Origin: Candidatus Omnitrophota bacterium
GTDB lineage: Bacteria > Omnitrophota > Gorgyraeia > Zapsychrales > JANLHA01
Direction of reading: 5' to 3'
Length of the DNA stretch: 64,000 nucleotides
Assembly: GCA_963662715.1 (NCBI GenBank)
Contig: OY759724.1
Coordinates: 268,670 to 332,669, forward strand
Positions 25,068 through 46,802 of this stretch are shown in pieces. The notes under the pieces are model-generated. The model had not been told where the DNA came from and ran no database searches. It saw only the letters and a list, made by a program, of their open reading frames with translations. Position 1 is the first letter of the stretch, and the number at the start of each line of letters is the position of its first letter. A program made the translations under genes and the position numbers.

Positions 25068-25094
25068 TGGTGGAGGTGCGGGGAATCGAACCCC
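25068..25094 (-). repeat. tRNA 3'-end fragment (T-arm plus acceptor 3' strand plus CCA): att-site remnant, copy A
   Basis: Minus strand reads GGGGTTCGATTCCCCGCACCTCCACCA (T-loop TTCGATT, 3' acceptor, discriminator, CCA). No complementary 5' acceptor strand or anticodon arm follows, so it is a fragment, not a gene. Confidence 0.55.
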
Positions 25095-25196
25095 TATCAA
25101 TTATAAAGGGCTAAAACAAATGGTTTTCGGAAAATTTTTCAAAAAACCACCACATAAAAACCACATGAAATTTTTGAGTGAAAAATTTGACAAAAA

Positions 25197-25219
25197 ATGG
25201 TGGAGGTGCCGGGAATCTC
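25197..25219 (-). repeat. Second, shorter tRNA 3'-end fragment (copy B) in direct orientation
   Basis: Minus strand reads GATTCCCGGCACCTCCACCA (1 mismatch to copy A), 129 bp from copy A. Each copy is followed on its right by the motif CCACATAAAAACCACAT (25150-25168 and 25281-25297). Confidence 0.5.
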
Positions 25220-25295
25220 CATCAAGATGTAAATAATCCTTAAAAAGAAAGTATGTTACAGACATTTTCATCAATTCCCCCACATAAAAACCACA

Positions 25296-26438
25296 TTAAA
25301 TATTCTTGGCTATTCGATAAACCAATGCAAAATCATTTTGTGAAATTTTCTCATTACGCGCCACAAGTGTCCTTACAGCAGTAGCTCCTATTGTCGCAAT
25401 GGCCAATATAAGCCCCCCCACTGTAAATAGCTGTTGTTGCTCTTGTACGACACCTCGTAAGAATGTCGTAATTCCTGCCCAAGCCATTCTGTCACTAAAC
25501 AAATTTTCAAGGAATCTATCAGTATCTCTCCTATCAAGCATTAAAACATCCCCTATTTCATGTTCTACGTTTTGACGAATGAATTTCTCTACATAGACTG
25601 GGAGATTTTCAAGATTGTCTGGAATAGTTAACTCCTGAGCAAGTTGATGACATTTTAAACGGAATCGTTGAATTTCTGGTCCATGTTCATTTAACAGCTC
25701 TATGATGAAATCTATTTTTTCTTTATCAAGCGGATCAAGCCGTGGAGAAAGAATTTGACGAAATAATTCCCATTCTACAATATCTATATCTATATTTTGC
25801 CCAGTTTGGATGGGTTGCATATGAATCGACATTTTTGAAAATAACGTTATAAGATTTTGGTTTGTAAGCAGAATCCTCGCGTTTGCTTTTATAAAATCTT
25901 TAAAAACAAAAAGACGCAAAAAATATGACTTCACAAGCAACTTTTCAACTACCTTTTGATGGACTATCTCATCATAATAGCGATATACTTTTTCCCAATC
26001 TTCATCATACTCATAATATTTTTCGAACAATAAATGCCTCATAAATTCACCGTAAGCATTATACTGATTACAAGACAGTTTTAATTCATCAAAATTAATC
26101 CCCAACATTTCATAAAAACTAGACATTTCATCAATTGCTCTAGAACTAGCCGAATATTTCAACATGCACACAAGAATCTTTTTTAAAGGTTTAAATAAAT
26201 CAACTGTAGTGTTCGATAAATGTTTCATCTGAATCCAGCTATAAAATTGTTTCTCGAATGTATTCCTCCAACTTGGATTACGTAATTCAACAAGCCTCGG
26301 GAAAGGAGAATAATCTAAGGGATATATCACAGGTGTTTGAGTTAAAATGATCGGCCCGTCAAAATACAAAAATGTTGCGCCACTAATCTGCGAGGCATCT
26401 GTGATAGGATCTGGCCATATAAAGGTTGGTGCACTCAT
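25296..26438 (-). CDS. Hypothetical protein with C-terminal TM anchor
   Basis: 380 aa, no recognised domain; C-terminal hydrophobic helix (LFTVGGLILAIATIGATAV). Last gene of the minus-strand array downstream of the integrase. Confidence 0.45.
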   Translation of the reverse strand: MSAPTFIWPDPITDASQISGATFLYFDGPIILTQTPVIYPLDYSPFPRLVELRNPSWRNTFEKQFYSWIQMKHLSNTTVDLFKPLKKILVCMLKYSASSRAIDEMSSFYEMLGINFDELKLSCNQYNAYGEFMRHLLFEKYYEYDEDWEKVYRYYDEIVHQKVVEKLLVKSYFLRLFVFKDFIKANARILLTNQNLITLFSKMSIHMQPIQTGQNIDIDIVEWELFRQILSPRLDPLDKEKIDFIIELLNEHGPEIQRFRLKCHQLAQELTIPDNLENLPVYVEKFIRQNVEHEIGDVLMLDRRDTDRFLENLFSDRMAWAGITTFLRGVVQEQQQLFTVGGLILAIATIGATAVRTLVARNEKISQNDFALVYRIAKNI

Positions 26439-26470
26439 GCAATCTTCCTAATATTTTCTAAAAATAACTT

Positions 26471-27571
26471 TTATACTGAGCTCATTTTTAAAACTTTTGT
26501 TCTTCCCTCTTCCGTCGAGTGAGAATAATATTTAATCAGCACATTAATATCCGTATGGCCGGTAATGGCCATGACATCCCGAATGGGCATATTTTTTAAC
26601 CCGGCCTCCGTGATCAATGAATGGCGAAAATCGTGAGGGGTTACTCTTTTCTTAATTGTTCGTTGGCTGACACTTGCTAGATATTCGCGAAAATGATTAC
26701 TTGATATTTTATTACCTAATGAATTCGGAAACAACCAAATATATCCTTTTTGTCTGAAACTAAATTGTTTAATGACACTAGCCAAATCGTCGTCAATCGT
26801 TTCCAGGACAAACTCCTTTTTGTTTTTTCTGACTTCTGGATCAAGCCGAATTAGAACTGGATTCAGACCACGAAATTTAACATTTTCTTTCTTAACCGAT
26901 AATACCTCCTCGATACGCCAACCAAGCCGAATCAACATATACGTGACACCATAGTATTCAAGACGATGCTGCTTTATAGCTGCAAGGAGCTTTTGCTTGT
27001 CAGTCTTTGTTAACTCCTTGTACTTTTTTTGCATTTGAAAGGGCTTCTTAAACTCAGATAAATATTCACTCACTTCTTTTTTACAATACCCTAAACGCAC
27101 AAGGCGACTAAAAACTCCTTTAAGAGTCCCCAATTCAGAACGCCACCCCTTCTTTCGTCCCTGGTCATTCACCACAAAATTCTTATATTCATTAAAGACA
27201 TCTGTAGTAATCACATTCACATTCTGAATTTCGGGATACTTATCAGGAAGAAACACGAAGAAGAAAGTATTGTAGGTATTTAATGCCCGGCTAATTGTTT
27301 TCTTTCGAAGATTATCCCCTTTTAAATCCCTGATAAATTGTTCCTTTAAAGCATCGAAAGCGATATTTCTCTTTCCTGCTCGTATCTCATCCTTCGAAAT
27401 AACTGTTTGCTGAATCAGCCGTGATTTTTCCTGGTAAGCTTCGTACATTGAAGCTGCTTTAATACGTTTGAAAATTCGCGGGCCTTTGTTGGGAAGCTGA
27501 AAGTTAATTTCAAAGACTCCGTCCTTAATCTTTCTGACACCCAGAAACTTTTTAGACGATTTGTATCTCAA
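26471..27571 (-). CDS. int: Tyrosine-type site-specific integrase
   Basis: 366 aa; catalytic R...HxxR...Y tetrad region (HDFRHSLITEAGL ... ITGHTDINVLIKYYSH). Confidence 0.9.
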   Translation of the reverse strand: MRYKSSKKFLGVRKIKDGVFEINFQLPNKGPRIFKRIKAASMYEAYQEKSRLIQQTVISKDEIRAGKRNIAFDALKEQFIRDLKGDNLRKKTISRALNTYNTFFFVFLPDKYPEIQNVNVITTDVFNEYKNFVVNDQGRKKGWRSELGTLKGVFSRLVRLGYCKKEVSEYLSEFKKPFQMQKKYKELTKTDKQKLLAAIKQHRLEYYGVTYMLIRLGWRIEEVLSVKKENVKFRGLNPVLIRLDPEVRKNKKEFVLETIDDDLASVIKQFSFRQKGYIWLFPNSLGNKISSNHFREYLASVSQRTIKKRVTPHDFRHSLITEAGLKNMPIRDVMAITGHTDINVLIKYYSHSTEEGRTKVLKMSSV

Positions 27572-27792
27572 TTAACACTCCCCCCTTATTATCCGACAAA
27601 GGCAGGCTGTGCTTAAGCTTGAAAAAATACCCTGTAACTGGCTTTTGAAATTTGAAAGATAAGGAAAGGAGAATTGACTACGGGAAAGAATATTTCGAAA
27701 ACAATCAGCGTGGAATCCAGAAAATATATATCTCATCATAAAGAAATGGGTATTCATGATGAGATATATTATAAACGTTATCCGTTTATAAT

Positions 27793-27999
27793 TCAAGCAT
27801 TTTTCTTGCCGGGCTTTGGCCCTGGCTTTCGCTCCTTTGCTAAAAACCGTTTCAACGAATTTTCGTCGATAAGCCAAACTGTCGTATTCCGGGTTGTCTT
27901 CGCTTGACGGCCTTTGATTGTCCCCTTGCCTAAAAGCAAACGAAGATACCCGGTGGAAAGGCTGTACTTCTGGGAAGCCTCCCAGGTTGTCATAATCAT
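27793..27999 (-). CDS. Small HTH DNA-binding protein (phage/ICE regulator-like)
   Basis: 68 aa; HTH-like core (SQKYSLSTGYLRLLLGKG) and a basic tail. Preferred over the overlapping 147-aa ORF 27572..28015, which has no protein-like features. Confidence 0.45.
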   Translation of the reverse strand: MIMTTWEASQKYSLSTGYLRLLLGKGTIKGRQAKTTRNTTVWLIDENSLKRFLAKERKPGPKPGKKNA

Positions 28000-28066: not shown

Positions 28067-28249
28067 CTACTCAACACTCCCCTCTTTAAACCAATTCCAG
28101 AATTCCGATGAAATAGCGAAGATTCTTTTTCCCCTTCTGTAAAGAGGACATTTAGACCGTTTTTGCCAGCGTCTGCTTTGTATAGTATTAGGCGTTACAT
28201 GCAAAATCTTGGCAAGCTCCTCTACCGTTAGCGTTTCTTTAACTTTCAT
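28067..28249 (-). CDS. xis: Excisionase/AlpA-like HTH protein
   Basis: 60 aa: LTVEELAKILHVTPNTIQSRRWQ is the typical MerR-like excisionase HTH; located between the relaxosome genes and the integrase. Confidence 0.65.
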   Translation of the reverse strand: MKVKETLTVEELAKILHVTPNTIQSRRWQKRSKCPLYRRGKRIFAISSEFWNWFKEGSVE

Positions 28250-28284: not shown

Positions 28285-28746
28285 TCAACTACTATCCTTC
28301 TCCATTAAGGCAAGCACTCGTTTCTTGCGGATGACCGCTGACTGCTTTGCATTATTTTTGTTTTCGTCATTAACCTCCGGCGTATGGAACAAATAGGCAT
28401 ATAAAAACGCATCAATTAGTTTTTCGATCCTGTCCACCTTCCCGGACAACCTGTCATTCAAGGTTGTAATGCTGGTGCAGATGATTTCACGGGTTTCTTC
28501 TATCGTCGAATGAAAAGTAGCACCGGATTTATTTACGTCTACCAATCCCAACTCATTTAATAATTCCTTATGTTCAAGCGTCATTTGGGCATAGTTGATG
28601 ATGGCATTGCGCATAAATTCTGAAATTGAAACACCCTGTTCCTGCGCCAGCATGACGAACAGTTTATTCTCATCGGCAGTGACTCTAACGCCTATGGTTT
28701 TTGTTTTATGGGCCGTAGATTTATTAGTCATAATCTTCTCTCGCAA
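28285..28746 (-). CDS. Ribbon-helix-helix relaxosome accessory protein (MobC-like)
   Basis: 153 aa; the N-terminal RHH-like segment (TIGVRVTADENKLFVMLAQEQGVSISEFMRNAIINY) resembles MobC/TraJ-type accessory proteins. Confidence 0.45.
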   Translation of the reverse strand: MREKIMTNKSTAHKTKTIGVRVTADENKLFVMLAQEQGVSISEFMRNAIINYAQMTLEHKELLNELGLVDVNKSGATFHSTIEETREIICTSITTLNDRLSGKVDRIEKLIDAFLYAYLFHTPEVNDENKNNAKQSAVIRKKRVLALMEKDSS

Positions 28747-29270
28747 TCTGTTTGCTTAAACAAAAAAACAGGCTGCAAAACATACTTAACTTGCACCGGC
28801 CCCCAATAACGGGAGTCCCAGCTATTTGGTTTATAATCCGACATCAACCAGTACTGTTTTTCTTTCAATCTAATCGGAACATCATAATCTCGAAGGACAC
28901 GCCTTCCATGCGAATCTGTATCGAGCAGAGGATACCCGTTATAAACCTTACTGTTAATACGTATACTATCCTGTGAAACGTCAACCATATCACCCGGCAC
29001 AGCTACGATCTTTTTAAAAACCGGATTGATTCCGGTTGAACACCATCCCGTCTGAAGATATCCTCGCTCAAGTCCAAGCTCGGCCAATTCCGGCGTCAGA
29101 CAAGTGGCTGCCAGCATACCCCTTTCGGCATCAGCTGAAACCTTTCGATATATTCCCAAAGGCATACTCTCCGACAAATTTACACGAAATCCATAAACAC
29201 CAAGAACAAGACAAACTCCGAGAATCGTTATCAAAAAGACCGTAATAAATCGTAAAATTCTCTTCATCAT
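28728..29270 (-). CDS. traF: Conjugative signal peptidase TraF (S26 family)
   Basis: 180 aa; N-terminal TM, S26 catalytic Ser box (SESMPLGIY) and the conserved SWDSRYWG box. Confidence 0.8.
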   Translation of the reverse strand: MMKRILRFITVFLITILGVCLVLGVYGFRVNLSESMPLGIYRKVSADAERGMLAATCLTPELAELGLERGYLQTGWCSTGINPVFKKIVAVPGDMVDVSQDSIRINSKVYNGYPLLDTDSHGRRVLRDYDVPIRLKEKQYWLMSDYKPNSWDSRYWGPVQVKYVLQPVFLFKQTDCERRL

Positions 29271-31207
29271 AAAAGCATCCTGTCGTCTTGCTCTTTTGGT
29301 TCTTCCTGTACCCCATACAATGCCTCAACCGGATTTTCTTCCGCTGTCTGTTCCGTCTTCTTTTCACGATACTCAGGAAATGCAATTTGTTTCATGTCTA
29401 TGCTAAGACGATCTGAATGTTCCGGAGCCGGAATCCTCGCACGGGAATTCAACTCATGATCTTGGTAGTATTTCATTTTCTTCCCATGGATCGGCGGCAT
29501 GTTCGACACAAAAATCAGTGTGTCTTCAGGCGGCAATCGCATGGTTTCATCGACCGTAACTAACGGCCTTTGGGCTTCTTGTGTCCCCTGTGAAATACCG
29601 GCATTCACTAATTGTGTACGTTTTCTCGTCAGATTCTTCGAATGTTTAATCACCGTAGACGCTCCGGCCATATGGGACAGGTTTTGAGCGGTTTCCAGTT
29701 TATTCGGCGCAAAGGCAATTCTAACCCGACAATTTCCTGTGATCGACTCGTCCCGCCCATACGTCGAAAACAATTGGCTTAAATCCTGCAAGACAATAAA
29801 CCCTTTAAGTCCATACCCAGCCATGTAGGCAAACGCATCCTGAATAAATTCCATACGGCCCAAAGCAGCAAACTCATCGAGCATCAATAAAAGTCTGTTT
29901 TTGTGTTTCCTGTTAATGCGCCCGTCTTTGAGGATCATTTTGTCTTCGACCAACCGTCTTACAATCTGATTCAAAATCAGGCGCACCACCGGCTTCACCC
30001 TCGACATATCTGAAGGTGGAATCACCATATAGAGGCTTACCGGTTTTTCATAGTCCATCAAATCTATTATTCGGAAATCCGATACAGAAGTGTTAGCCGC
30101 AATGATCGGGTCACGATACATCGCTAAAAAACTCAAAGCCGTTGAAACTATTCCCGAGCGTTCTTCTGTAGATTTGTTTAGAAGTTCCCGTGCGACACTA
30201 CTGATAACCGGATGTGTTTTCGTAGCATTGCCGCTTACCGGATTTATCCACCCTCTCTCTTGCTCAGGATCATGGATTGTTTGCAACATAGATTCAAAGG
30301 TGTCTTCAACTGTAGACTCAGGATTAGATAAAAAATTGGTAACACCTGCCAAGGTCTTATCTTTCTCAGCATAAATCACGTGAAGAATCACCCCGGTCAA
30401 CAGGTTATAGGCAGATAACCGCCAATGATCATGCTTTCCTTTACCGTCAGGATCGACAATCATATCCGCGATATTTTGGACATCCCTGACCTCATTCTCT
30501 CCGAGGCGCACCTCATACAAAGGATTCACCCGTACACTTGAACCATCGTTACTGGTAGGATCAAATTTCATAACAAAACTTTTCAATTTTTCTTTCCTCC
30601 ATCTAGCTGTCAACAGCCAATTTTCAGACCGGATATCAAGAACGATAACGCTTTCACACCACGATAATAAATTCGGAACAACCAGCCCAACACCTTTACC
30701 GGAACGTGTCGGAGCAAAACAAACGACATTCCCCTCATCGTCAAATTTCAAATATTCGGTTCTTCGGTCATGTTCAATGGCCCCTATATATAGACCTTGT
30801 TTATTCCCAACAAGCCCGGCTTGACGAATCTCTTTATAATCAGCCCAGTGTGCGCTCCCGTGTACATCCGTCTGAGTATCGAGCGTCCGTAAATAATTCA
30901 TAAATATCGCTAAAGCCATGGATACCCCAACTGTAGCAATAAAAATCTGCATTCCTTGTCCTAGTGTTTTATGGTCAACAGGATAATCCCTGCGCATCAG
31001 CTGCCACTTGAAAATATCAATCGGATTATAAAATCTTCCAATCAACGGTTTTCCTAATTCAGGCCGGTAATTTAGCTTCTTAGCAGTAAATTGGGTTGCT
31101 GTACAAAGGCCAAAGACAATACCCAAAAATATCACTACAAGACAGGCCAAGCTCAAAAAACCTGTATGTCGTTTCGGAAGTTTATATAACGGCATATTGT
31201 CTAACAC
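29267..31207 (-). CDS. traG: Type IV coupling protein (VirD4/TraG family)
   Basis: 646 aa; N-terminal TM segments, Walker A (APTRSGKGVG), TraG/TrwB-type all-alpha and NBD regions. Confidence 0.9.
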   Translation of the reverse strand: MLDNMPLYKLPKRHTGFLSLACLVVIFLGIVFGLCTATQFTAKKLNYRPELGKPLIGRFYNPIDIFKWQLMRRDYPVDHKTLGQGMQIFIATVGVSMALAIFMNYLRTLDTQTDVHGSAHWADYKEIRQAGLVGNKQGLYIGAIEHDRRTEYLKFDDEGNVVCFAPTRSGKGVGLVVPNLLSWCESVIVLDIRSENWLLTARWRKEKLKSFVMKFDPTSNDGSSVRVNPLYEVRLGENEVRDVQNIADMIVDPDGKGKHDHWRLSAYNLLTGVILHVIYAEKDKTLAGVTNFLSNPESTVEDTFESMLQTIHDPEQERGWINPVSGNATKTHPVISSVARELLNKSTEERSGIVSTALSFLAMYRDPIIAANTSVSDFRIIDLMDYEKPVSLYMVIPPSDMSRVKPVVRLILNQIVRRLVEDKMILKDGRINRKHKNRLLLMLDEFAALGRMEFIQDAFAYMAGYGLKGFIVLQDLSQLFSTYGRDESITGNCRVRIAFAPNKLETAQNLSHMAGASTVIKHSKNLTRKRTQLVNAGISQGTQEAQRPLVTVDETMRLPPEDTLIFVSNMPPIHGKKMKYYQDHELNSRARIPAPEHSDRLSIDMKQIAFPEYREKKTEQTAEENPVEALYGVQEEPKEQDDRMLL

Positions 31208-31340: not shown

Positions 31341-32792
31341 CTACCTGATTTTTTTATTGATAGACATATTTGGGGAAAGAATCCCAATTTTCTGAAAATT
31401 GTCCAAGCGGTCTTTCATTGTCTTAATAAACTTCCCCCGGAATGTCGAAGTGTTCAAATTCACAAGATCCTCGCGATTCCGTTTTAAATAATCAATCGCA
31501 TACTGGTCAGCCTTTGTGAAGGACTTTGTCCTCTCAATAGTACTTAGCGGCCCCCAATTGGTGAACGACAAATAAGTTTTCTTGACGCCATTCTTTTTAT
31601 AAGACTTGACTTGCAGATGCACGGTATCTCCGTTTTTAATCTTTTGCCTATCCCTCTGTCTGATCATCTCATTCTTAGGATGGGTATAATGAATTTTTCC
31701 ATCCAAACCTTCAATCAACATGTAGCGTTTGTCGTTTTGTTCATTGTGCAAGCCAAAGCCTACCACACGTCCGACAACATGCTGGCCTTCTTTAAGCTGG
31801 GTATAAACCAACGGTAACGAAGGATCAGAAATATGTTTGAGATGCATGGTCTTTCGTTTGATAATATCCTGTGTCATCTGATAGGTCTTAAGACCGTCTT
31901 CCAAGTCTTCGGATACATTCCAGGTCAGGACACCGGTTTTACTGACAAATCCCATTGCCTCCAAGTATTGAAGACGTCCTAAAATCTGCAATCTCTTCTC
32001 TGTTTCAAAAAAACTTTCAGGAAGCTTTCCCTTAAACGTTAATCTACCGGCATCATCTTTCATACGCAGAATATCCCTATCAAGTTCTGTCAACCTGTTT
32101 TGAGAAATCGTCTTTTCCCGGCGTCTTAAAATATCACTGTTTAATCGGACACCTATTTGCCGAGTAGCCTCTTCCCTTGAGCGGAAACGTATTCCTTTCT
32201 TAATATAATTTTTGTTCATAATAAGTTCATTTCCCATCTCATCCTTTCCCCTTAAAACAATATGCACATGCGGGTCATCGGTGTTGTAATGATCAATCGC
32301 CATCCATTCCAATCGCGTCCCCAAATCCGATTCCATTCTCTGCATAAGATGACGGACATGCACCTTTAAATCCATACGCTCTGCCTGTTCGGGAGAAACA
32401 ATAATCTTAAACACATGCCCGTCACCTTCCTTTTGCCAGGCATCAAGTTTTTGTGATAAATCAACCTCTTCTTCCTCTGCTGAAAATCCCTTGCCACGCC
32501 TGCCCTCTATCTGCGCACCCTCACGTTCCAAATACCGACCATGCGCTTTCCACTGTCCGGAATGATGATTCACCGCGTAAGAAACCTTCACCACACTATT
32601 TTGAAAATTCCTCCCAGGATAAAAAAACCGTCCGCTCCCCTTAATTTCACTAGTACCTTCCCGTGTTTTATTAACAGCAGCTTTAATTAACCAAAGCTGT
32701 CCAAAAGATGTTGACTTCTCAAACCTTCGCCTTGAAGAACGGACGCGCAACAGCAACTCATTTATGTCATCTTTATTTTTGTGCAGAACCAT
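31341..32792 (-). CDS. Conjugative relaxase (VirD2/TraI-like HUH nickase)
   Basis: 483 aa; 3-His metal-binding motif HYNTDDPHVHIVLRG and N-terminal Tyr-containing region; sits between the VirB11 and VirD4 genes. Confidence 0.8.
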   Translation of the reverse strand: MVLHKNKDDINELLLRVRSSRRRFEKSTSFGQLWLIKAAVNKTREGTSEIKGSGRFFYPGRNFQNSVVKVSYAVNHHSGQWKAHGRYLEREGAQIEGRRGKGFSAEEEEVDLSQKLDAWQKEGDGHVFKIIVSPEQAERMDLKVHVRHLMQRMESDLGTRLEWMAIDHYNTDDPHVHIVLRGKDEMGNELIMNKNYIKKGIRFRSREEATRQIGVRLNSDILRRREKTISQNRLTELDRDILRMKDDAGRLTFKGKLPESFFETEKRLQILGRLQYLEAMGFVSKTGVLTWNVSEDLEDGLKTYQMTQDIIKRKTMHLKHISDPSLPLVYTQLKEGQHVVGRVVGFGLHNEQNDKRYMLIEGLDGKIHYTHPKNEMIRQRDRQKIKNGDTVHLQVKSYKKNGVKKTYLSFTNWGPLSTIERTKSFTKADQYAIDYLKRNREDLVNLNTSTFRGKFIKTMKDRLDNFQKIGILSPNMSINKKIR

Positions 32793-32796
32793 ATAT

Positions 32797-33072
32797 TCAC
32801 CTCATCATTTTGTTAATAGAAATCTTTTTACTTCGGGTAAAATCAACCTTCAATCCTTGTTGAGTTTGGCGGACGGCAATCACGTTCCCTACCTTGAATT
32901 TCTTTACATAATCGCCTTTGACCCTCAATATCCATTTCTTCTCACGATCCTCAAGAACAATATCGGATATCTTTTGTATTTTTTGATCAGGAGATTGCCG
33001 AATACTCTTGATTGTTCCCCTAACCTGCCTCCCAGGATGAAGCTCAATTTTTTTCATTTTTTCTTCTGCCAC
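32797..33072 (-). CDS. Hypothetical small basic protein in the transfer operon
   Basis: 91 aa, Lys/Arg-rich; starts 16 nt after the VirB11 stop, and its own stop overlaps the relaxase start. Confidence 0.4.
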   Translation of the reverse strand: MAEEKMKKIELHPGRQVRGTIKSIRQSPDQKIQKISDIVLEDREKKWILRVKGDYVKKFKVGNVIAVRQTQQGLKVDFTRSKKISINKMMR

Positions 33073-34108: not shown

Positions 34109-34112
34109 TCCC

Positions 34113-36446: not shown

Positions 36447-37124
36447 TTAAAGTGTTTTTGACCAAGAAATGCTTTTAATAAATATCCCGAAAGGATTAGC
36501 CGGATTATCCCTTAATGTCTTTGGTGAATCAGGCGGGATTTGCGTAACAATAAATAATCCCTTCCAGCGGCAACGCTCAATTTCCGTGTTATTCATATCA
36601 CGCTCAGTTTCCTCCCATTCAACAATATAGGTATTCTCGGTTTGCTTTAGAAAGGTTAAAGGCTTAACCTGGACAGACTTTTTCCTTGCCATATCAAAAG
36701 GATTATTCTCCTGGTAATATTCATTCAGGAAATTCCTGACAGGCGGGGCAGCCAAACGGTAAACATCATCAAAATTTTTACGCATCGCTTCCGGGTCTGA
36801 AATTATTGACCGGGCCATTTCGATAAAATCATATAAGTAGGCACGAATAATTTTGTCATCTGCCATTTCTGTTTTTTGTGCAGGACCAGAAGCCACAGCC
36901 CGTCCTGTTTGGTCAACTTCGACAATCCAGGGAACTATTTCTCTTCTTAACCCTGTGGCAATCAGTCCTATCGCCAAGACAAAAATTATCAGCAATTCAA
37001 AGCAAGCGGCAATTTGCCAATTGTGCTTCTCCTGAATCGGCTGATTAAATAAGGCATTCCATTCCTTTCGAATATTGTGATAAGGATTCTTTTGATCCTT
37101 AGATTGTTTATTTGGTGTTTCCAT
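36447..37124 (-). CDS. virB8: T4SS protein VirB8/TrbF
   Basis: 225 aa; single N-terminal TM and NTF2-like C-terminal domain; located between the VirB6 and VirB9 genes. Confidence 0.7.
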   Translation of the reverse strand: METPNKQSKDQKNPYHNIRKEWNALFNQPIQEKHNWQIAACFELLIIFVLAIGLIATGLRREIVPWIVEVDQTGRAVASGPAQKTEMADDKIIRAYLYDFIEMARSIISDPEAMRKNFDDVYRLAAPPVRNFLNEYYQENNPFDMARKKSVQVKPLTFLKQTENTYIVEWEETERDMNNTEIERCRWKGLFIVTQIPPDSPKTLRDNPANPFGIFIKSISWSKTL

Positions 37125-38283: not shown

Positions 38284-38366
38284 CGGATAACCTTTTCCTT
38301 CTTAGACACTTCTTCCTTTTCTTAACAAATCCAGAATATTTATTAATAAAGGGGAGTTTATAAGAA

Positions 38367-39089
38367 TCAATACCCAGGGGTATTTCCCGCCGTAAACGGT
38401 ATTTCATGAAAAAACTCTTCAGCAGCGGCATTGTCCGCGGCTTCCTTATTAACCTGATGCGCCATATAGGCATTTTGGGCCTGTATCTGTGACATATTAA
38501 GCTGACGAAGTTTTTGTAGCTGTCCTACCATTTCATTAGCGATCATATTCGCTGCCTGTAAAGCCTGGGTCTGGCCTTCCGCACTATCTGAAAGATTTCG
38601 TATTGTTTTCATAGTGGCATCTTCTGTCTGAAACTGATTGCTTTGTAATCCCGCTGCCGCAAAAGATCCGGCAATCGAATCCAGTGTTGTCTGCGACCAG
38701 TCCTGATAAGATTGAATATAATCTACAGGCGGGTCATACCCAGGATACTTTGCTTTAAACACCTGTTCGATATTCTGCAAGGTATAAGACATGGCCTGCC
38801 CTTGCTTGACAATCTGCTGAAGTTGCTGCAAAGCCTGGATTGTTTTTCCCCACTCGCTTTGAGGAAACGTGGCAATACTTTTAAACATCTCGATTTGATT
38901 CTGGATCATCTGAATTTGATTAACTACCATCTGTGCCTGTTTGGCTACTGAAGCAATCAACTCAGCATGATTCAATAACTGTGTCATTTCCGTCGCATAG
39001 ATAGCATAGGAATTTTTAATAGGAACAATGCTAAAAATAAATATAAAAATCATATGTGTTATACGTTGATGTAATAGTTGTGTCTTCAT
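38367..39089 (-). CDS. T4SS protein TrbJ/VirB5-like
   Basis: 240 aa; signal peptide, Gln-rich coiled-coil (QQLQQIVKQGQ...), located between the VirB4 and VirB6 genes. Confidence 0.6.
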   Translation of the reverse strand: MKTQLLHQRITHMIFIFIFSIVPIKNSYAIYATEMTQLLNHAELIASVAKQAQMVVNQIQMIQNQIEMFKSIATFPQSEWGKTIQALQQLQQIVKQGQAMSYTLQNIEQVFKAKYPGYDPPVDYIQSYQDWSQTTLDSIAGSFAAAGLQSNQFQTEDATMKTIRNLSDSAEGQTQALQAANMIANEMVGQLQKLRQLNMSQIQAQNAYMAHQVNKEAADNAAAEEFFHEIPFTAGNTPGY

Positions 39090-39093
39090 CGTC

Positions 39094-41562
39094 TTACCCC
39101 CTCCTGTTTGTTAAACTTTCATAAACCTCATCCCATAAACCAGCCTCTTCATTCAAGCCATACTCACTCAACCAATATTTCACCCACGCCTCACCATGTT
39201 TTTGCTCCAAAGATTTAATTCGTTTGATATCTTCTAAAGAAGTCTTTCCCATAAAACTTAAAAATGCTTTCTCCAACTCCAAATCTATTAAGCGCATCCC
39301 TAAAGGAGAAGTGTAATAATAATGTTTCTTCGCAATCGCATTGGCAATGATCCCAATTTGCGTTTCATTTAGCCCTAAAGTTTTATACGCTTCTTCTCCT
39401 GTGGGGGATGCGGCTTGAGGATTGGGTAAATAGACTTTGACCGGACAAGATTCAAGGATCACATCTTTGATCGAAGAATGAATAATGTCTGTGACATGCT
39501 GAGTACAAAAAACCACACATGCATTAGCCTTGCGCAGTTCACGAAGCCAGATTTTGAGTTTTTCTCTAAACATTTGATCATCAAAGACCGTCCATGCTTC
39601 ATCAACCGCGATAAGTGTCGGGGCGCCGCTTAATCGCCGTTCAATCTGGTGAAACAGATAAGATAAGACCGGAATCGAAAACCGTTTTTCCTCTTCCATG
39701 AGCTTTGAGATTTCAAATACCTGGAAATGTCCATCCTGTAAGCTGTCATGTGATGCATCCAGCAAGTGCGCCATAACTCCCTTTTGGGTTGAGACGAACG
39801 GGTCAAGTGCTTTGCGTATTTCAGTGTTTTGAATGTTTAAACAAAAGTTCGAAAGTGTTTTCTCTTTATCTGACCGCAAGGCATTTATGGCATTACTGAT
39901 CGCAATACGCTTCTCCGGGTTCATTTCAACCCCGGCTAATACGATCAACTCTTCCATCCATTCGCAGGCCCATCGTTTTTCGCTCTCAACAGCAATGTCT
40001 TTTAACGGAGAAAAGGTCAGGTGACTGTCATCATCCAGGATGGGATAATGACGCGCACTACACGCCTTGACTAAAGCAAACATACTATTTCGTTTATCAA
40101 AACAAAATACCTGTGCTCCAGGGTAACGCAAGAATTGAACGCACATAAGGGAAAGTAATGTTGATTTACCTGATCCGGTCGGCCCGCAAATCATAGTATG
40201 CCCCACGTCATCCACATAATTGTTAAACCGGAAAGGCGCAGCTCCTTGCGTCGAAGCATAGAATAAGGAAGGGCTGTTTTTCTCAAGTCGAGGATTAGGA
40301 TTGTACTCCTGTCCTGTCCATGTTCCGGCGAGCGGCATCAAATGAGTCATATTCAATGTATGTATGAGCGGCTTTCTGACATTACGAGCACTATCACCCG
40401 GCAAACTTCCAAGATACGCTTCAATAGCATTAATTGTTTCCACACGGGCCGGAAACCGTTTATCCGTTAGTAAATCACGGACAATTTTAACGCGCCGTTG
40501 ACATTCACTCTCATCCTCGCAAATGATAACAATGACCGATGAAAAATAACCGTAACGAACACCCCCTGCCTGAGCGATAGTCATAGCCTGATGAGCGTCC
40601 GCAGCCTTTTCGGCAGCTTCAATATTGCCATACTGACTCTCAGAGCCAGGCGAGATAATTTGCAGGATGATATTCTTTAAATTAAATTGTTTATTGTGCC
40701 ATTTGAGCAATACCTTTTTGATTTCTTGCTCCGCATCAACCGGATCAAGGACAATAAAACGGATGGAGAACCGGTATTCAAAAGGCAAAGACATCAAGGC
40801 ATTGCCAAGCATCTCGCTATGACTTTCCGAAGGGAACCCAACCACAGCAACCACACCGATATATTTCCCATCAATTTGCGGATGTATCCCACCGGTGAAG
40901 TCATACCCGCCCAGCAGATAATTAAGAAAACCACCCTGCACATCGGCAAAATCAATGTATCGTGCAGTAATACAATAGTGAAGAAATCCCTGCATTTGTG
41001 TAGATGACATCTGTTCAACGTTTAACCGTGCACCGCTAAGTCCGGATTCCACCTCAAGAATGACCTGCTTAAATTCTCGGCACAAAGATTCCATGTCTCT
41101 TTGCTTAACAGCATCGATTTTGTTTTTCTTCTCAGAAGTGACAAATAGCTTTTGAAACTTCCTGTCCTGTAAAGCCGAAGGTTTGTAGGTCAACGTTAAA
41201 ACGTAGACCGTTTCAAAATGCCTCTGTGCCGACTCAAAATTACTTTTTCGCTCACAATCAATAAGCCAGGATGTAGCATCAGGGAAAGAATTGTCATGAG
41301 GATATTCTGTAACAGGAATACGAATGGCATTAACATTGATAACCCAGCCTGTGCGCAGACTGCCCAGGACTGCGTTAACCTGAGAACATAGCGCATCTTT
41401 ATCCTGAGCAGAGGACGAATCCAGATCAGGGCCGTGATAGTAAAATCCGGCCATTAAACTTCCGTCTTTATTGAGCAGAATACCCTCGTCTACAAAACCG
41501 AAGTAATTGATAAGATCAGGGAATCCTTTAAAATTATTTTGTGCTTCACTGTTTTTCTGCAT
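39094..41562 (-). CDS. virB4: T4SS ATPase VirB4/TrbE
   Basis: 822 aa; Walker A GPTGSGKS, Walker B region; canonical size. Confidence 0.9.
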   Translation of the reverse strand: MQKNSEAQNNFKGFPDLINYFGFVDEGILLNKDGSLMAGFYYHGPDLDSSSAQDKDALCSQVNAVLGSLRTGWVINVNAIRIPVTEYPHDNSFPDATSWLIDCERKSNFESAQRHFETVYVLTLTYKPSALQDRKFQKLFVTSEKKNKIDAVKQRDMESLCREFKQVILEVESGLSGARLNVEQMSSTQMQGFLHYCITARYIDFADVQGGFLNYLLGGYDFTGGIHPQIDGKYIGVVAVVGFPSESHSEMLGNALMSLPFEYRFSIRFIVLDPVDAEQEIKKVLLKWHNKQFNLKNIILQIISPGSESQYGNIEAAEKAADAHQAMTIAQAGGVRYGYFSSVIVIICEDESECQRRVKIVRDLLTDKRFPARVETINAIEAYLGSLPGDSARNVRKPLIHTLNMTHLMPLAGTWTGQEYNPNPRLEKNSPSLFYASTQGAAPFRFNNYVDDVGHTMICGPTGSGKSTLLSLMCVQFLRYPGAQVFCFDKRNSMFALVKACSARHYPILDDDSHLTFSPLKDIAVESEKRWACEWMEELIVLAGVEMNPEKRIAISNAINALRSDKEKTLSNFCLNIQNTEIRKALDPFVSTQKGVMAHLLDASHDSLQDGHFQVFEISKLMEEEKRFSIPVLSYLFHQIERRLSGAPTLIAVDEAWTVFDDQMFREKLKIWLRELRKANACVVFCTQHVTDIIHSSIKDVILESCPVKVYLPNPQAASPTGEEAYKTLGLNETQIGIIANAIAKKHYYYTSPLGMRLIDLELEKAFLSFMGKTSLEDIKRIKSLEQKHGEAWVKYWLSEYGLNEEAGLWDEVYESLTNRRG

Positions 41563-41571
41563 GGCAACCTC

Positions 41572-41859
41572 TTAAATTCTTACACTCGTTTCACCGGCAG
41601 GGTAATAATCCCGATATTTGATGTGTCGAAAAAATATCTTGGTAAGCTGAGGATCGATCTTGGCTGCTTCACGGGCAAGAATGCTGCCGATCAGCCAGAT
41701 AATCCCCGAGAGGATTAACGAGTTGATATCCTTTCCGGCTACCCAAACAATAGCTGACGTAAAACCGATCAATATAATTAATTCCCTTTCTGCCCCAGCA
41801 ACTAACACAGGTTGTACAAGCGATTGATGAATAGTTATTATTTTTATTTCCTCTGACAT
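41572..41859 (-). CDS. virB3: T4SS protein VirB3/TrbD
   Basis: 95 aa, two TM helices, immediately upstream of virB4. Confidence 0.75.
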   Translation of the reverse strand: MSEEIKIITIHQSLVQPVLVAGAERELIILIGFTSAIVWVAGKDINSLILSGIIWLIGSILAREAAKIDPQLTKIFFRHIKYRDYYPAGETSVRI

Positions 41860-41883
41860 CCGATCTCTCCCGGATAAAGGTGT

Positions 41884-42195
41884 TTAAAGCAACGATGCAT
41901 TAAGACCAAATAATCCCATCAATCCCCAGGCGGAAGACACAATGCTAAAACCCAAGACTGTAGTAATGAATGCTCGAATTCCCCTGTTGACCTCCGAGAA
42001 CATCAACGCCACAGCCGCAGCCACAAGAGCAATGATTGAAATGCTGGTTGCTACCGGGCCCTGTAACGATTCTGCGATTTGAGTCAAAGGCCCTTCCCAA
42101 GGTAAGCTGCTCCCCACAATCCCGGCAAAAGCATTGTTTGCAAACCAAGCCATAAACCAGGGAGTTAAAATACATAACCGGATTATTGTTTTCAT
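41884..42195 (-). CDS. virB2: T4SS pilin VirB2/TrbC
   Basis: 103 aa; long signal peptide then two hydrophobic helices (TSISIIALVAAAVALMF; AFITTVLGFSIVSSAWGLMGLFG). Confidence 0.8.
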   Translation of the reverse strand: MKTIIRLCILTPWFMAWFANNAFAGIVGSSLPWEGPLTQIAESLQGPVATSISIIALVAAAVALMFSEVNRGIRAFITTVLGFSIVSSAWGLMGLFGLNASLL

Positions 42196-42211: not shown

Positions 42212-42493
42212 TTAAACTTTTATTTTTTCCTTTTCATAAGCTGCCAATACCCGCTTTTTGATTTCTTGACGAATGCTTGCTGTTGTGCAATAAACCGTGT
42301 CATACCAGCGGCCATTTTTATTGAGATGCTGCGGCATCGACACAAATAATCCAGTTTTACCATTAATAACCCGAAGATTTTTAACGACAATTTCATTGTT
42401 CAAGCAAATGTCAGCAAAGGCCTTAAGATAACGTGCGTCCTTAATCCTTCTTATCCTACCGACAACATTAATTTTGATTTTATTTTTATCCAT
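42212..42493 (-). CDS. spoVG: SpoVG-family protein
   Basis: 93 aa; LKAFADICLNNEIVVKNLRVINGKTGLFVSMP aligns with the SpoVG core ([32 protein letters not shown]). Sits 17 nt upstream of the pilin gene on the same strand. Confidence 0.8.
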   Translation of the reverse strand: MDKNKIKINVVGRIRRIKDARYLKAFADICLNNEIVVKNLRVINGKTGLFVSMPQHLNKNGRWYDTVYCTTASIRQEIKKRVLAAYEKEKIKV

Positions 42494-43498: not shown

Positions 43499-44416
43499 TC
43501 ACACAACCTTCTTGATCCTTTTTTCTTTACGGATGATCTGCCCAACATCTTCTATAATACAAGCCATATCGTCCTCACTCAAGAGATTATTTGCCTGCAT
43601 GAATTGATCCCAGTAGCCAAAAAACCGATAGAAAAGCCTCCTTAATTGCCGAAGAACTTTTCTGACCTGGATTATTTCTAAATCCAGCAATATGGCGATG
43701 CCTTCCAAGCTTAAATGATCCATTTGCCGAATTGCCCTGTGAACTTTGCGTTTTATCTCATAGGATTTATTGATCGGGAGTTTACACGGACGGCTTAATC
43801 GATTGAATTTCCAGGTCGGTTCCAATCTTTCATCAAGAATTCCTTTTTCCTTGAGTTCTAGCAGTATGACCTCGCTATCCTTAACATTTAACTTATCAAA
43901 ATATTCTCGAAGATCAAGATCATGATAAAACATAAGTTCAATGATTTGATAGTGAATGCCGTTTTTGTCAAACGAGTCAACAAAATCACTGACGAGCTTC
44001 TGGACAACCTCATCTTTTTCCTGCTCTGTTAAATTCTTAACATGGTTATTTTTCCCTGGGAAACCCTCAATGAAATTAACCCATTCTTTAAAAAAGGATG
44101 ACTCTCTGACTAACATGCGATATTCCGGGAGCTTGACACTATCAGATATAATTTTTCTTTTACGGTTGTGCAGCCATTTAAGAAAAGATTCTCCTATTCC
44201 CGTATCCCAATTCCCGGTCACTGCATGCATAGCTAACAAAACATCGTGAGCACAATCTTCACCATCCAAATCCGGCCTAATGCTGCAATAGGGTTTCATC
44301 CTCATTTTTCTAGCTGCCGAACAAGCAAGTCTACAACGAACTTCCTTTATAGTCATTGTCTTTTTTTTGACATATTCTTCCTTTTTCTCGGATTTCTCCT
44401 CCTCTTTTTTACCCAT
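43499..44416 (-). CDS. Sigma-70 family RNA polymerase sigma factor-like protein
   Basis: 305 aa; region-2-like segment (DCAHDVLLAMHAVTGNWDTGIGESFLKWLH) and C-terminal region-4-like HTH (HLSLEGIAILLDLEIIQVRKVLRQLRR). Assignment by pattern only. Confidence 0.5.
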   Translation of the reverse strand: MGKKEEEKSEKKEEYVKKKTMTIKEVRCRLACSAARKMRMKPYCSIRPDLDGEDCAHDVLLAMHAVTGNWDTGIGESFLKWLHNRKRKIISDSVKLPEYRMLVRESSFFKEWVNFIEGFPGKNNHVKNLTEQEKDEVVQKLVSDFVDSFDKNGIHYQIIELMFYHDLDLREYFDKLNVKDSEVILLELKEKGILDERLEPTWKFNRLSRPCKLPINKSYEIKRKVHRAIRQMDHLSLEGIAILLDLEIIQVRKVLRQLRRLFYRFFGYWDQFMQANNLLSEDDMACIIEDVGQIIRKEKRIKKVV

Positions 44417-44443: not shown

Positions 44444-44520
44444 GACGTTAATTAAATAAATCTTCACGAAACGCCCCTTTAAATGGACGTTAAATAAATA
44501 ATTCTTCACGAAACACCCCC
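44444..44520 (-). promoter_or_regulatory. Two ~34-bp imperfect direct repeats in the promoter region of the sigma-factor gene
   Basis: GACGTTAATTAAATAAATCTTCACGAAACGCCCC (44444-44477) and GACGTTAAATAAATAATTCTTCACGAAACACCCCC (44486-44520), with 42-bp periodicity, 28-104 bp upstream of the start codon at 44416. Confidence 0.5.
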
Positions 44521-45026
44521 TCTCGATAAAAATGCTCTCTTAATTATTTTAATACATCATTTCACTGCTGTCTCGCTTAAAAATTGCACCTGATGTAATT
44601 TATTACAACAAAGGGATTAACAAGAAAAAAAATATTTAGACCTGGCCAATAAGGTTTACGCATTGGACGCACCAACAACCGGCCAATGCCCCTCCGTATT
44701 CCCGTAGGCCAAATTTCGCAAAACCAAAGCAGGCATCAAACTTCACAAATAAAAGCCAGGGGGAGCGTAAAACTGGCCGCCGACAGCGTTAACGCGGACA
44801 TTAACATTTGTTAGATAAAATACCAATTTGTTAAACAAAACACCCCTCTTCCCCGCATAAAATACCCCTGTGTTAAACGTCCTTTATCTTGCTGTACGGC
44901 TGACAGATAGGGGTTTTTTGTTAACATTTTGGGATTTTGGGTTTATAGGATTATTTTTGGGAAGGAGAAACCGGCAGGCCTTGTCCGGGCCTTTTAATAG
45001 CGAGAGGCCCGACTCGCGGGAAAAGA

Positions 45027-45545
45027 TCAGATGTTTAAAAAGACATAAACAGTATATTGACTACTTTGGACACTGTAATAATCACACATGAAAAGGTCAC
45101 GGGCAAATTTTTCGTAATCAAAATAGAAAGCTAACCGTTCCGGGATGTCCATTGTTTCATCAGCCAAATTTTCCGCAAAGGCCTCTTCTGAGTCCCATTC
45201 CCCTTGATAGGATTCTTCAAACCCTTCTTCTGTGGCATAATCAACGCCCACGTTATTGGCATAAGCCGCGTAGGCTTCCCCATGCTCTTCAATGAGCCGG
45301 GCGTATCGGACCACATCTTTGATGCTTTCATATTCCGATAGATGAAGTCCTTCAAAGCCCTCGTAATCATGAATCGCGTACTCCTCTGCGAAGGGTTCCG
45401 GGCTGTTTTTTAGCATATCCTGAATTTCTTCATGGATAGCATCCGCATCCTGATTCGCGTCAATCCATCTTCCATGCAGTTTGCCGTTGTTGTACGCCGC
45501 CAAACAGGCAACGTAAATCCGGGGTGTAATCGTTTGAGTAGCCAT
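45027..45545 (-). CDS. ardA: Antirestriction protein ArdA
   Basis: Signature TPRIYVACLAAYNNGKLHGRWIDA and acidic C-terminal DNA-mimic region. Start reassigned to the internal Met at 45545 (MATQTI...), which is preceded by AAGGAG; the ORF track start at 45611 lacks an RBS. Confidence 0.85.
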   Translation of the reverse strand: MATQTITPRIYVACLAAYNNGKLHGRWIDANQDADAIHEEIQDMLKNSPEPFAEEYAIHDYEGFEGLHLSEYESIKDVVRYARLIEEHGEAYAAYANNVGVDYATEEGFEESYQGEWDSEEAFAENLADETMDIPERLAFYFDYEKFARDLFMCDYYSVQSSQYTVYVFLNI

Positions 45546-45846
45546 GAGCGCATCTCCTTTTTTGAGGATTAATCCGTTGGAGATCGAACCCTCGATCTCT
45601 GTTTGACTCACTCATGGACATATGCCATGCAAGGATGCGCAGGCTTTCCTTAAATGATCAAAATAACCATTTGGGAGAAAGCCAAGCACTCGCAAGTCCT
45701 GATGGTCTTTTATCAGGACGCCGTCCTTGTGGCATATGTAAAAATGGGCAAACAGAGATTGATGGGGTTGCCCTCGACTCGAAGGGCTGGATGGAAATGG
45801 TGGTTTACAAATTATTTAAAAAACTGAAGCAGGAGATTTTGACGCA

Positions 45847-46743
45847 TTACATTATTGAGGCAGTTGCCGTGGACTTGCTATCTTCGATTTTACCCAAGTC
45901 CGCAGTAAAATAATAGCGCGAGGTGAGGATAGCATAAAGCCGCTTTGCCAGGCATTCAGCTTCTTGATCAGTTCCTTCTACCGAAACAACTGCCTCGTCG
46001 CCTTCCTGTAAACCCAAACATAAAAGAGCCATGATAGATTTGGCATTGGGTTTATTATCATCCGAAGAGTTTTTTTCGCTGATAAAGACAGCATGTGGAT
46101 ATTTTCTGCATTCTTTTACTATTCGGGTGCCAGCGAAGAACCCAAGTCCGCCATTAAGATGAATCTGTACTTTAACAATGGTCTGATTATTTTCTTTTGA
46201 TAGCTTGAATGGTTCAATGACATAGGGATTTGCCTGATATTTCTTGAGAAGATAGTCCAGGGATTGCTCAAGTTGTTTGCAGTCCTCCTTGTAATCATGA
46301 GTCCTCAGCACAGTGCAATCAGCGGCTTCCAAAAACCAAGCATCGATAAAAGACTGAATTTCTTCTTCAATATAGAGGATAACCGGGATATCATTTGTCT
46401 TCTTAATGGCCTTAATGAGCTTCCACCCTCGCCCATACGCTCGCTCATATTGAACCCGTCGGTCGAAGCATACAACTTCTTCTTCAGGAAGCGGAAATTT
46501 GCAGGCAAAGGCATAAGGCACATGCGTGATAACAGCGTCAAAGGCTTCTTCTGTCCCGGCTTTTGCGCGAATGATTTCGATAGTATTATCATCCAATCCA
46601 AAGCAGGTCTCGAGATGATAGTGGCGGGATAATGAATTGCAGATATATCGAAAGGCCGTGGATGTATCCTGCTCTTCCGTCTTTGACCTTTCGACGAAAA
46701 GGATTCGTTTTTGAGCTTGGGTTGTTGGATTGTCGGGGTTCAA
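45847..46743 (-). CDS. Fusion protein with C-terminal HPr-like domain lacking the phospho-His
   Basis: The C-terminal ~85 aa align with HPr (KSIMALLCLGLQEGDEAVVSVEGTDQEAECLAKRL vs HPr [30 protein letters not shown]), but the His15 site is GLGFFAGT (no His); a Ser equivalent to Ser46 is present. N-terminal ~200 aa of unknown fold. Confidence 0.55.
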   Translation of the reverse strand: MNPDNPTTQAQKRILFVERSKTEEQDTSTAFRYICNSLSRHYHLETCFGLDDNTIEIIRAKAGTEEAFDAVITHVPYAFACKFPLPEEEVVCFDRRVQYERAYGRGWKLIKAIKKTNDIPVILYIEEEIQSFIDAWFLEAADCTVLRTHDYKEDCKQLEQSLDYLLKKYQANPYVIEPFKLSKENNQTIVKVQIHLNGGLGFFAGTRIVKECRKYPHAVFISEKNSSDDNKPNAKSIMALLCLGLQEGDEAVVSVEGTDQEAECLAKRLYAILTSRYYFTADLGKIEDSKSTATASIM

Positions 46744-46802
46744 CTCCTTTTACCTGTCCCCTTATCGGTGCACTGGCACCTTTTTTGGAGAATCCCAAGG
46801 TG

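Follow-up and report, generated by a model that had tools for sequence, protein, structure and literature searches.

The 64,000-nucleotide (nt) stretch of DNA analysed here, called the window in the following, belongs to a Candidatus Omnitrophota bacterium (assembly GCA_963662715.1, contig OY759724.1, positions 268,670 to 332,669 of the forward strand). Between 25.1 and 42.5 kb, an intact conjugation gene set is encoded on its minus strand and probably forms the backbone of an integrative and conjugative element (ICE) inserted into a tmRNA gene. According to the listing of open reading frames (ORFs) and scans with hidden Markov models (HMMs), the gene order is trbC, D, E, J, L, F, G, I and B, a 91-aa ORF, genes for a relaxase, the coupling protein TraG/VirD4, TraF and a NikA-like protein, two small helix-turn-helix (HTH) ORFs, a tyrosine integrase gene, a 380-aa orphan ORF and, finally, two remnants of attachment (att) sites. 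The core functions of an ICE, i.e. a VirB4-family ATPase, a coupling protein (VirD4), a relaxase and an integrase, were all recovered by the Pfam and NCBIfam models, as was a complete type IV secretion system (T4SS). Hence, the central claim of a first-pass annotation, which had been made from the letters of this DNA without database searches, is borne out. The approximately 20 backbone genes are full length and intact compared with their homologues in a syntenic relative, locus L105 (a JGI 3300000571 contig), and because the gene lengths agree in this way, nothing looks broken.

The mating-pair-formation operon trbC-D-E-J-L-F-G-I-B spans positions 33089..42195 (-). It begins with trbC/virB2 (41884-42195; Pfam TrbC/VirB2) and trbD/virB3 (41572-41859; Pfam VirB3; TrbD model 63.6 bits, cut-off 60), which are followed by trbE/virB4 (39094-41562; PF03135 and PF19044; NF010447 TrbE 710 bits), trbJ (38367-39089; 240 aa, without Pfam match; TIGR02780 TrbJ_Ti 158 bits, cut-off 100) and trbL/virB6 (37108-38283; Pfam TrbL/VirB6; TrbL_P 191 bits, cut-off 129). 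The operon continues with trbF/virB8 (36447-37124; Pfam VirB8), trbG/virB9 (35372-36439; Pfam CagX/VirB9), trbI/virB10 (34113-35375; Pfam TrbI/VirB10) and trbB/virB11 (33089-34108; Pfam T2SSE/VirB11), the latter scoring 325 bits with TrbB_P (cut-off 305) compared to 144 bits with VirB11 (cut-off 250). All channel components score best as Trb, i.e. as P-type; TrbB, TrbL_P, TrbJ_Ti, TraF_Ti and TrbD exceed their NCBIfam cut-offs, and TrbC, TrbE, TrbF, TrbG and TrbI stay below theirs. Judged by these model scores, the channel is a complete P-type (Trb) T4SS of the MPF_T class, and the earlier description of the gene order as VirB-like in the style of Ti or pKM101 has to be abandoned. TraF had been correctly recognised and then treated as an oddity; in a Trb channel its presence is expected and represents no paradox.

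Compared with the canonical order trbB-C-D-E-J-(K)-L-F-G-(H)-I, the sole departure, apart from trbK and trbH, is the position of trbB after trbI. The same trbB-last order is found in L105 and in locus L106 from an Omnitrophica metagenome-assembled genome (MAG; GCA_015233115.1), hence it is regarded as a lineage trait. The operon has no separate gene for trbH/virB7 or trbK, which agrees with the first-pass annotation as far as VirB7 is concerned. TrbG starts with a lipoprotein signal of its own (lipobox FSGC, Cys22) and an N-terminal extension of approximately 100 aa, and this lipobox may supply the lipoprotein anchor in place of the missing TrbH/VirB7. TrbE is approximately 40% identical to alphaproteobacterial TrbE.

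The mobilisation genes follow on the same strand. Between trbB and the relaxase gene lies the 91-aa ORF (32797..33072), which is 34% identical to the end of a 172-aa ORF found after trbB in L105. The relaxase (31341..32792) is of the MOB_P class and the RlxS/DUF3363 type (NF041267 RlxS E 4e-74; MobP3 E 3e-9; PF11843, above cut-off, and PF03432), and its three-His motif HYNTDDPHVH can be read in the sequence as HxDxxxPHxH. With 250 bits, the RlxS score is far from the curated equivalog cut-off of 850 bits. The protein is 56% identical to the relaxase of L105, its best plasmid matches do not exceed 37% (a Cupriavidus DUF3363 protein, 37%), and no sequence match was found in the PDB. The TraG/VirD4 type IV coupling protein (29267..31207; PF02534, T4SS-DNA_transf, E 7e-100; IncP-type TraG 620 bits) is followed by the S26 pilin-processing peptidase TraF (28728..29270; TIGR02771 TraF_Ti 113.9 bits, cut-off 100; PF10502, Peptidase_S26). 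The last member of this group, previously labelled MobC-like, is rather a NikA-like relaxosome accessory protein of the ribbon-helix-helix type (28285..28746; PF21983 E 1.4e-8; matches to MobA, MbpA and TraJ in NCBIfam).

The integrase module closes the array. The tyrosine integrase (26471..27571, -; 366 aa; PF00589 E 1.6e-18) has the HxxR, GH and catalytic Tyr motifs, and its C-terminal motifs align to Tn1549 Int (PDB 6en0). In the 221-nt gap upstream of int, inverted repeats at 27726..27792 (17-nt arms, 94% complementary, and a perfect 10-nt pair) represent a possible operator or origin of transfer (oriT). Further upstream, two small ORFs were found on the minus strand. The 68-aa ORF (27793..27999) gave weak HTH_59 and HTH_17 matches (E 0.01-0.07), and no homologue of it was found in the related loci. 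The 60-aa HTH_17 protein (28067..28249; PF12728 E 2e-5) has counterparts, 51-55% identical, in small ORFs upstream of related integrases in L102 and L103/L104, and one of 37% identity in L109. Such co-inheritance with related integrases makes it the likely excisionase (Xis) or directionality factor. The first-pass annotation had assigned Xis to a 147-aa ORF, which was rejected as spurious: its composition is implausible, it has no family match and it looks non-coding. Furthermore, it had not listed the 380-aa orphan ORF (25296..26438, -) between the integrase and the att remnants, the last gene before att. This ORF encodes a C-terminal hydrophobic helix, has no Pfam, NCBIfam or PADLOC family, and its single-sequence AlphaFold2 model was unusable (mean confidence, pLDDT, 39).

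Next to the integrase end, displaced 3' ends of an RNA gene are present twice, as had been noticed before, and in both the 5' to 3' direction leads away from the integrase. The proximal core GATTCCCGGCACCTCCACCA (25198..25217, -) matches the tmRNA end at 19 of 20 positions, with the identity beginning in the T-loop, and is the candidate attR of the present element. The distal remnant (25068..25094, -) is a perfect 27-nt tmRNA 3' end consisting of T-arm, acceptor strand and ACCA; this exact 27-mer occurs once in the window, on the minus strand, compared to none in 100 shuffles. Eight nt past it, a GC-rich hairpin can be read from the sequence (GGGGCATC-CTGT-GATGCCCC; 25040..25059, -), which probably represents the terminator region of the native tmRNA 3' end and hence part of the chromosomal flank; a terminator hairpin likewise lies 3' of the tmRNA remnant in the relative L101. 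The perfect T-arm and acceptor end followed by a hairpin fit an original gene end displaced by insertion, and the distal remnant is taken to be the chromosomal tmRNA 3' end moved in this way.

The 103-nt stretch between the two remnants (25095..25197, -) appears as a diverged duplication with a spacing of 130 nt. An arm motif, ATGTGGTTTTTATGTGG, is found in it a second time (25150-25166), and its T-rich start is similar to the beginning of the island in L101. The exact 17-mer occurs twice in the window, once ahead of each remnant, i.e. only at this junction. We infer that an earlier element of the same integrase family was reduced to its arms here and left this stretch as a relic, in which case tandem insertion would have been followed by deletion at the site. 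Approximately 62 nt before the proximal core, two ATGTGG direct repeats are spaced by 11 nt (25280..25296, -), with (A)TGGTGG equivalents in L101, L103 and L109. Paired (A)TG(G/T)TGG direct repeats, 11-12 nt apart and 60-85 nt before the core, are shared by the related loci, and these repeats are candidate arm-type integrase sites. Just outside the distal remnant, at 24113-24857 (-), a fragment of a rolling-circle-type Rep gene (weak REP_ORF2-G2P match) and the tail of an rve-family transposase gene were observed, which are further relics of mobile DNA at an insertion hotspot.

The 27-mer was scanned in one genome per species, and the genes at the resulting 97 loci were called with ARAGORN. 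It ends a tmRNA gene in 83 of these loci, a tRNA-Ala gene was called in two, and most of the others are clipped by the edge of the stored block. Wherever an Omnitrophota locus includes the whole gene, this gene is a tmRNA with the 27-mer at its end, and many Omnitrophota tmRNAs end in exactly this sequence. With permissive thresholds, tmRNA was also the best, albeit weak, Rfam family for 25068-25151 (E 0.03). Going by these gene calls, the insertion target is the tmRNA gene (ssrA) and not a tRNA gene, as the first-pass annotation had assumed. A search for the att core, as proposed there, does find it again (at the 97 loci, and as a degenerate second copy in the window), but the accompanying search for a full tRNA would have failed because the target is ssrA. 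Among the scanned genomes, the complete actinobacterial chromosome OZ251578.1 (Candidatus Spongiisociaceae; loci L066 and L080) contains the 27-mer twice. A coding region resembling TraF (36% identity) is situated approximately 4 kb away from one copy, and ssrA may harbour a further conjugative island there.

The same arrangement is met in loci with related integrases. Besides the query itself, the protein search returned integrase relatives of 39-61% identity, and those of 48-55% identity adjoin a tmRNA 3' remnant on the same strand and in the same orientation in four loci (L101, L103/L104 and L109; core ...CACCTCCACCA). Locus L101 (integrase 48% identical) shows a complete tmRNA gene at 1476-1866, then a 10-kb island, the integrase, one unknown ORF, the remnant (11980-11999, with CCCCGGCACCTCCACCA at 11983-11999) and a terminator. 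In L103 and L104 (54%), the same island end is found with TATTCCCGCCACCTCCACCA 80 nt past the integrase. These two metagenome contigs are identical up to ...CCACCA (L103 11166-11185, L104 2873-2892) and unrelated beyond, so that the same element is seen in two contexts and its boundary is exactly marked. L109 (55%) has the exact 20-mer GATTCCCCGCACCTCCACCA 127 nt past the integrase. A metagenome scan with the integrase added just two short contigs, neither of them with an att site, and scans of viral contigs revealed no related integrase. From these loci, the family geometry appears to be tmRNA, island, int and displaced fragment. With the full tmRNA and the distal int of L101 as a guide, attL is predicted to the right of position 64000, where a whole tmRNA gene on the minus strand, with GATTCCC(C/G)GCACCTCCACCA at its end, would be expected.

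The location is chromosomal rather than on a plasmid. To the left of position 25068 lies a housekeeping flank with a UvrA paralogue, ABC transporter genes, a radical SAM gene, a DEAD-box helicase, glycosyl-transferase and hydrolase genes and enzyme I of the phosphotransferase system (PTS). Moreover, the protein search found proteins identical to those of the element on a 3.36-Mb contig, which supports this location. The first-pass annotation had also stressed that the transfer genes form a one-strand array. They are indeed all on the minus strand, but so is every gene between 7.6 and 64 kb; therefore, co-directionality was rejected as evidence for the element. Regarding its extent, the far boundary had rightly been said to lie outside the window: no tmRNA gene and no further att copy were found up to position 64000. 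On the simplest reading, the element is at least 38.9 kb long and extends past this position, and the window would show this much of its body together with the integrase-proximal end (attR). The end at 46800, where the earlier description had stopped, is very probably not the end of the element.

The analysis of base composition and tetranucleotides, another proposed check, revealed a discontinuity of modest size. The GC content amounts to 38.3% in the left chromosomal part, 36.4% at the integrase end, 42.7% in the transfer module, 46% in the RHS gene segment further right and 37% between 53.5 and 64 kb. The reported visibly higher GC content thus holds for the transfer module and not for the integrase end. 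Over the ICE, tetranucleotide usage correlates less well with the chromosomal block (0.78-0.87, compared to approximately 0.9), and the value falls to 0.49-0.69 in the RHS segment, the most deviant composition in the window.

On the basis of the gene content and the att remnants, we consider it likely that the region is an ICE integrated into the chromosome at the 3' end of ssrA, with attL and ssrA itself expected to the right of position 64000. However, several observations weigh against this reading. The other end, attL, is not seen: between 25.3 and 64 kb, neither an att-like sequence (up to five mismatches to the 20-mer) nor a second integrase was found, the window contains, according to ARAGORN and Rfam, neither a tRNA nor a tmRNA gene, and no Rfam family reached its gathering score. 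No oriT was found, as the nick motif YATCCTGY is absent from the intergenic DNA of the element, its lone non-coding match being situated in the hairpin outside attR. The compositional break is real but modest, and the genes at 46803..64000 are probable cargo of the element. Its completeness, excisability and transfer are predictions from the sequence.

Against this background, four other explanations have to be weighed. Since an att copy could have eroded, the ICE might end near 47 kb, and the RHS toxin and the defence genes at 47-64 kb would then constitute a separate ssrA island in a tandem array. The heterogeneous composition (RHS segment 46% GC with tetranucleotide correlations of 0.49-0.69, followed by 37% GC at 53.5-64 kb), the relic that documents a tandem insertion at the site and the lack of a transfer function among the genes annotated at 47-64 kb all speak for it. 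Nevertheless, neither a second integrase nor an att-like sequence was found from 25.3 to 64 kb, and toxin and defence cargo is typical of ICEs. We regard the tandem array as a serious though unlikely possibility, and one element of at least 38.9 kb that includes the 47-64 kb part is the simplest reading. Less probable still appears a fixed, non-excisable remnant, in which the tmRNA-proximal end (attL) was lost or rearranged and the transfer genes survived together with attR. It would explain 39 kb without attL, tmRNA or a third att copy, decay is evident at the locus (the 103-nt relic element and the Rep and insertion sequence (IS) fragments at 24113-24857), and an IS-truncated integrase of the family is present in an Omnitrophica MAG. 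The intact backbone genes, full length in comparison with L105, and the integrase with its catalytic motifs speak against such decay, and ICEs of 40-100 kb or more are common, which makes a boundary outside the window unremarkable.

The two remaining alternatives concern the identity of the parts. That the remnants derive from a tRNA-Ala gene is suggested by the G3:U70 acceptor and the ...CTCCACCA end, which tRNA-Ala and tmRNA share, by the two ARAGORN calls among the 97 matches and by phage tRNA-Ala genes that carry the 20-mer. It is very improbable given the 83 loci with a tmRNA end, among them every Omnitrophota locus with a whole gene, the best Rfam match and the pairing of the L101 integrase with a complete tmRNA gene. 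Even harder to believe is a protein-secreting or otherwise non-conjugative T4SS that is merely located in the island. L106 provides a precedent, as it has the same trb operon and TraF beside a type II secretion system (T2SS)/pilus cluster, with no relaxase or coupling protein nearby. In the window, however, the trb genes form one continuous array with those for the relaxase, the NikA-like protein and TraG/VirD4, ardA lies 2.8 kb upstream of trbC, and the closer relative L105 also has relaxase and TraG.

If the region is an ICE, the following cycle can be proposed, the steps of which are derived from what is known of the protein families. The 60-aa HTH_17 protein and the integrase would generate a circle by recombination between the tmRNA 3' end and either the 20-nt core at 25198-25217 or the older copy at 25068-25094, probably assisted by the paired ATGTGG arm sites. 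The NikA-like protein and the RlxS-type MOB_P relaxase would nick a putative oriT, and TraG/VirD4 would pass the relaxase-bound strand to the P-type Trb channel (TrbB, D, E, F, G, I and L) with its TrbC pilus. In this scheme, TraF would mature the pilin, TrbJ would be a minor component, and the TrbG lipobox would probably act in place of TrbH/VirB7. ArdA would shield the incoming DNA from restriction in the recipient, where the integrase would re-insert the element into ssrA and thereby rebuild the 3' end of the gene.

The overall design of the element is ordinary and well known; the host group is little studied. For the combination of a trb/tra system with insertion into ssrA, a precedent is provided by Trb-2 of Legionella pneumophila Corby, a chromosomal island with a trb/tra type IVA system that occupies the tmRNA gene (PMC9863629). 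By description, it resembles the window element as a P-type trb/tra system on an ssrA island, and differs in its gammaproteobacterial host. Islands with tmRNA-targeting tyrosine integrases are known more generally (Williams 2002, Nucleic Acids Research 30:866, as cited in PMC7775301). They share with the window element the insertion at the ssrA 3' end, the identity from T-loop to CCA, the displaced 3' fragment at the far end and the occurrence of tandem arrays. In the window, however, the integrase adjoins the displaced fragment and not the intact gene, as is also the case in L101, and the cargo is a full conjugation system. CP4-57 and VPI are examples of such tmRNA-targeting islands.

Regarding the parts list, the element is closest to the proteobacterial ICEs of the Tn4371 family and ICEMlSymR7A, which likewise have a tyrosine integrase, an RlxS-type MOB_P relaxase, TraG, TraF and a trb operon without trbH and trbK. 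However, the window proteins are 28-40% identical to theirs, and the RlxS score of 250 bits is far under the 850-bit cut-off. The trbB gene is last, whereas it is first in the Cupriavidus plasmid order trbB-C-D-E-J-L-F-G, and no ParA or Rep was found among the scanned ORFs of the element, unlike in a backbone of the Tn4371/ICEMlSymR7A type. Also the target differs, as ICEMlSymR7A uses tRNA-Phe, Tn4371 its own site and the window element ssrA. Because it departs from them in target site, backbone genes and gene order and stays below the relaxase cut-off, we file the element outside these families. Homologues of TrbB, C, D, E, F, G, I, J and L, of the IncP-type TraG and of TraF link it also to IncP-1 (RP4). 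RP4, in contrast, is a plasmid with TrbH, K, M and N, a TraI/TraJ/TraK relaxosome and another gene order, whereas the window element is integrated. In RP4, TraF cyclises the TrbC pilin.

The nearest relatives are environmental sequences. L105 has the same order trbC-D-E-J-L-F-G-I-B with 40-60% identity, followed by the 56% identical relaxase and TraG; it differs by three extra ORFs before the relaxase and by the absence of genes for SpoVG, ArdA and HPr. The trb order of L106 is also the same, with 31-49% identity, and trbC to trbB plus TraF lie at 9039-19097 next to the secretin and T2SS/pilus cluster; this locus may be a decayed or repurposed T4SS. Both loci carry no annotation or description, and relatives of the integrase and of TrbE bear Omnitrophica names. 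By its sequence relationships, the window element would thus be an MPF_T/MOB_P ICE of an undescribed environmental lineage. In the collection of papers searched, none pairs Omnitrophota with integrative and conjugative elements, and publications on Omnitrophica and conjugation are, judged by title and abstract, not about such an element. Two preprints from 2026 deal with mobile elements of Omnitrophota and, in the passages retrieved, describe a conjugative plasmid spanning several phyla and unusual integrative elements without classical ICE machinery; term searches of these texts did not reveal a canonical ICE.

With somewhat more doubt than confidence, we suggest that this may be the first explicitly recognised canonical ICE of the candidate phylum Omnitrophota. 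It would represent a distinct trbB-last Trb lineage with a lipoprotein TrbG for TrbH, would share its ssrA-specific integrase module with small non-conjugative islands, and would carry an RHS toxin and a defence cluster on at least 39 kb. For a mostly uncultivated and poorly known group, whose routes of gene exchange are only now being surveyed, it provides a concrete means of conjugation that appears to be intact. As the mechanism stays within known ICE biology, the value lies in cataloguing and comparison rather than in new concepts. The ssrA-specific integrase/Xis module with its 20-nt core and candidate arm sites could help to delimit islands in such genomes and might serve as a genetic tool.

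Upstream of the trb operon, the accessory genes are likewise on the minus strand, and most of them were correctly named before. A SpoVG homologue (42212..42493; PF04026 E 2e-21) lies 16 nt upstream of trbC, and the ArdA anti-restriction protein is encoded at 45027..45611 (PF07275 E 2e-43). The supposed sigma factor, a 305-aa all-helical protein (43499..44416), is only weakly similar to sigma-70/ECF factors (TIGR02937 E 1e-4, 21.8 bits, cut-off 42.9), and its single-sequence AlphaFold2 model was unusable (pLDDT 44). Immediately upstream of this ORF, two tandem direct repeats of 42 nt, 88% identical (44436-44519), are possibly an operator or promoter element of the regulatory region of the ICE. 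The HPr-like fusion is a 298-aa orphan whose N-terminal half is receiver-like and whose C-terminus is formed by an HPr domain of the PTS phosphocarrier type (45847..46743; PF00381 E 6e-10); a search of 5.8 billion proteins returned just the protein itself.

The probable cargo, also on the minus strand, includes a 2155-aa RHS/YD-shell protein (47093-53560) with TTR and laminin-G domains, RHS repeats and a glycine-rich C-terminal tail past the DPxGL motif. The gene is followed by a 90-aa membrane ORF (from 46803), which could be the immunity gene of the RHS toxin. Two lipoprotein-like ORFs and a gene for a PEP-CTERM protein lie between the RHS gene and a Schlafen/AlbA_2 gene (56643-57797). The latter belongs to a defence-type gene cluster (56643-63996) with an 880-aa Ppl-like ATPase (57776-60418; PADLOC E 2e-33), AbiEi (60450-61055; E 2e-68), a HEAT protein and, at the window edge, a SIR2-like ORF (63472-63996).

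Some observations concern the chromosomal part of the window. The only plus-strand genes judged convincing are the two ORFs of an IS3-family element, orfA (6031-6363) and orfB (6353-7372). This element adjoins a MORN-repeat ORF in the 5526-7372 region, in which the DNA shows periodic repeats of 66-69 nt (5654-5816). The tmRNA neighbourhoods of 12 Omnitrophota-type loci gave no informative synteny; an unknown gene at 1092-1931 and the IS3 orfA match the Omnitrophota MAG L026, and the unknown gene also matches L040. The orfA product is 82% identical to its counterpart in L026, and positions 1058-1826 share 77% DNA identity with the same MAG. This DNA match, the many Omnitrophota tmRNAs with the 27-mer, the Omnitrophica names among the integrase and TrbE relatives and the PTS enzyme I relative described next suggest, short of proof, an Omnitrophota host. 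The chromosomal PTS enzyme I gene is located at 7676-9352, and its nearest organism-named relative, with 42% identity, comes from Omnitrophota.

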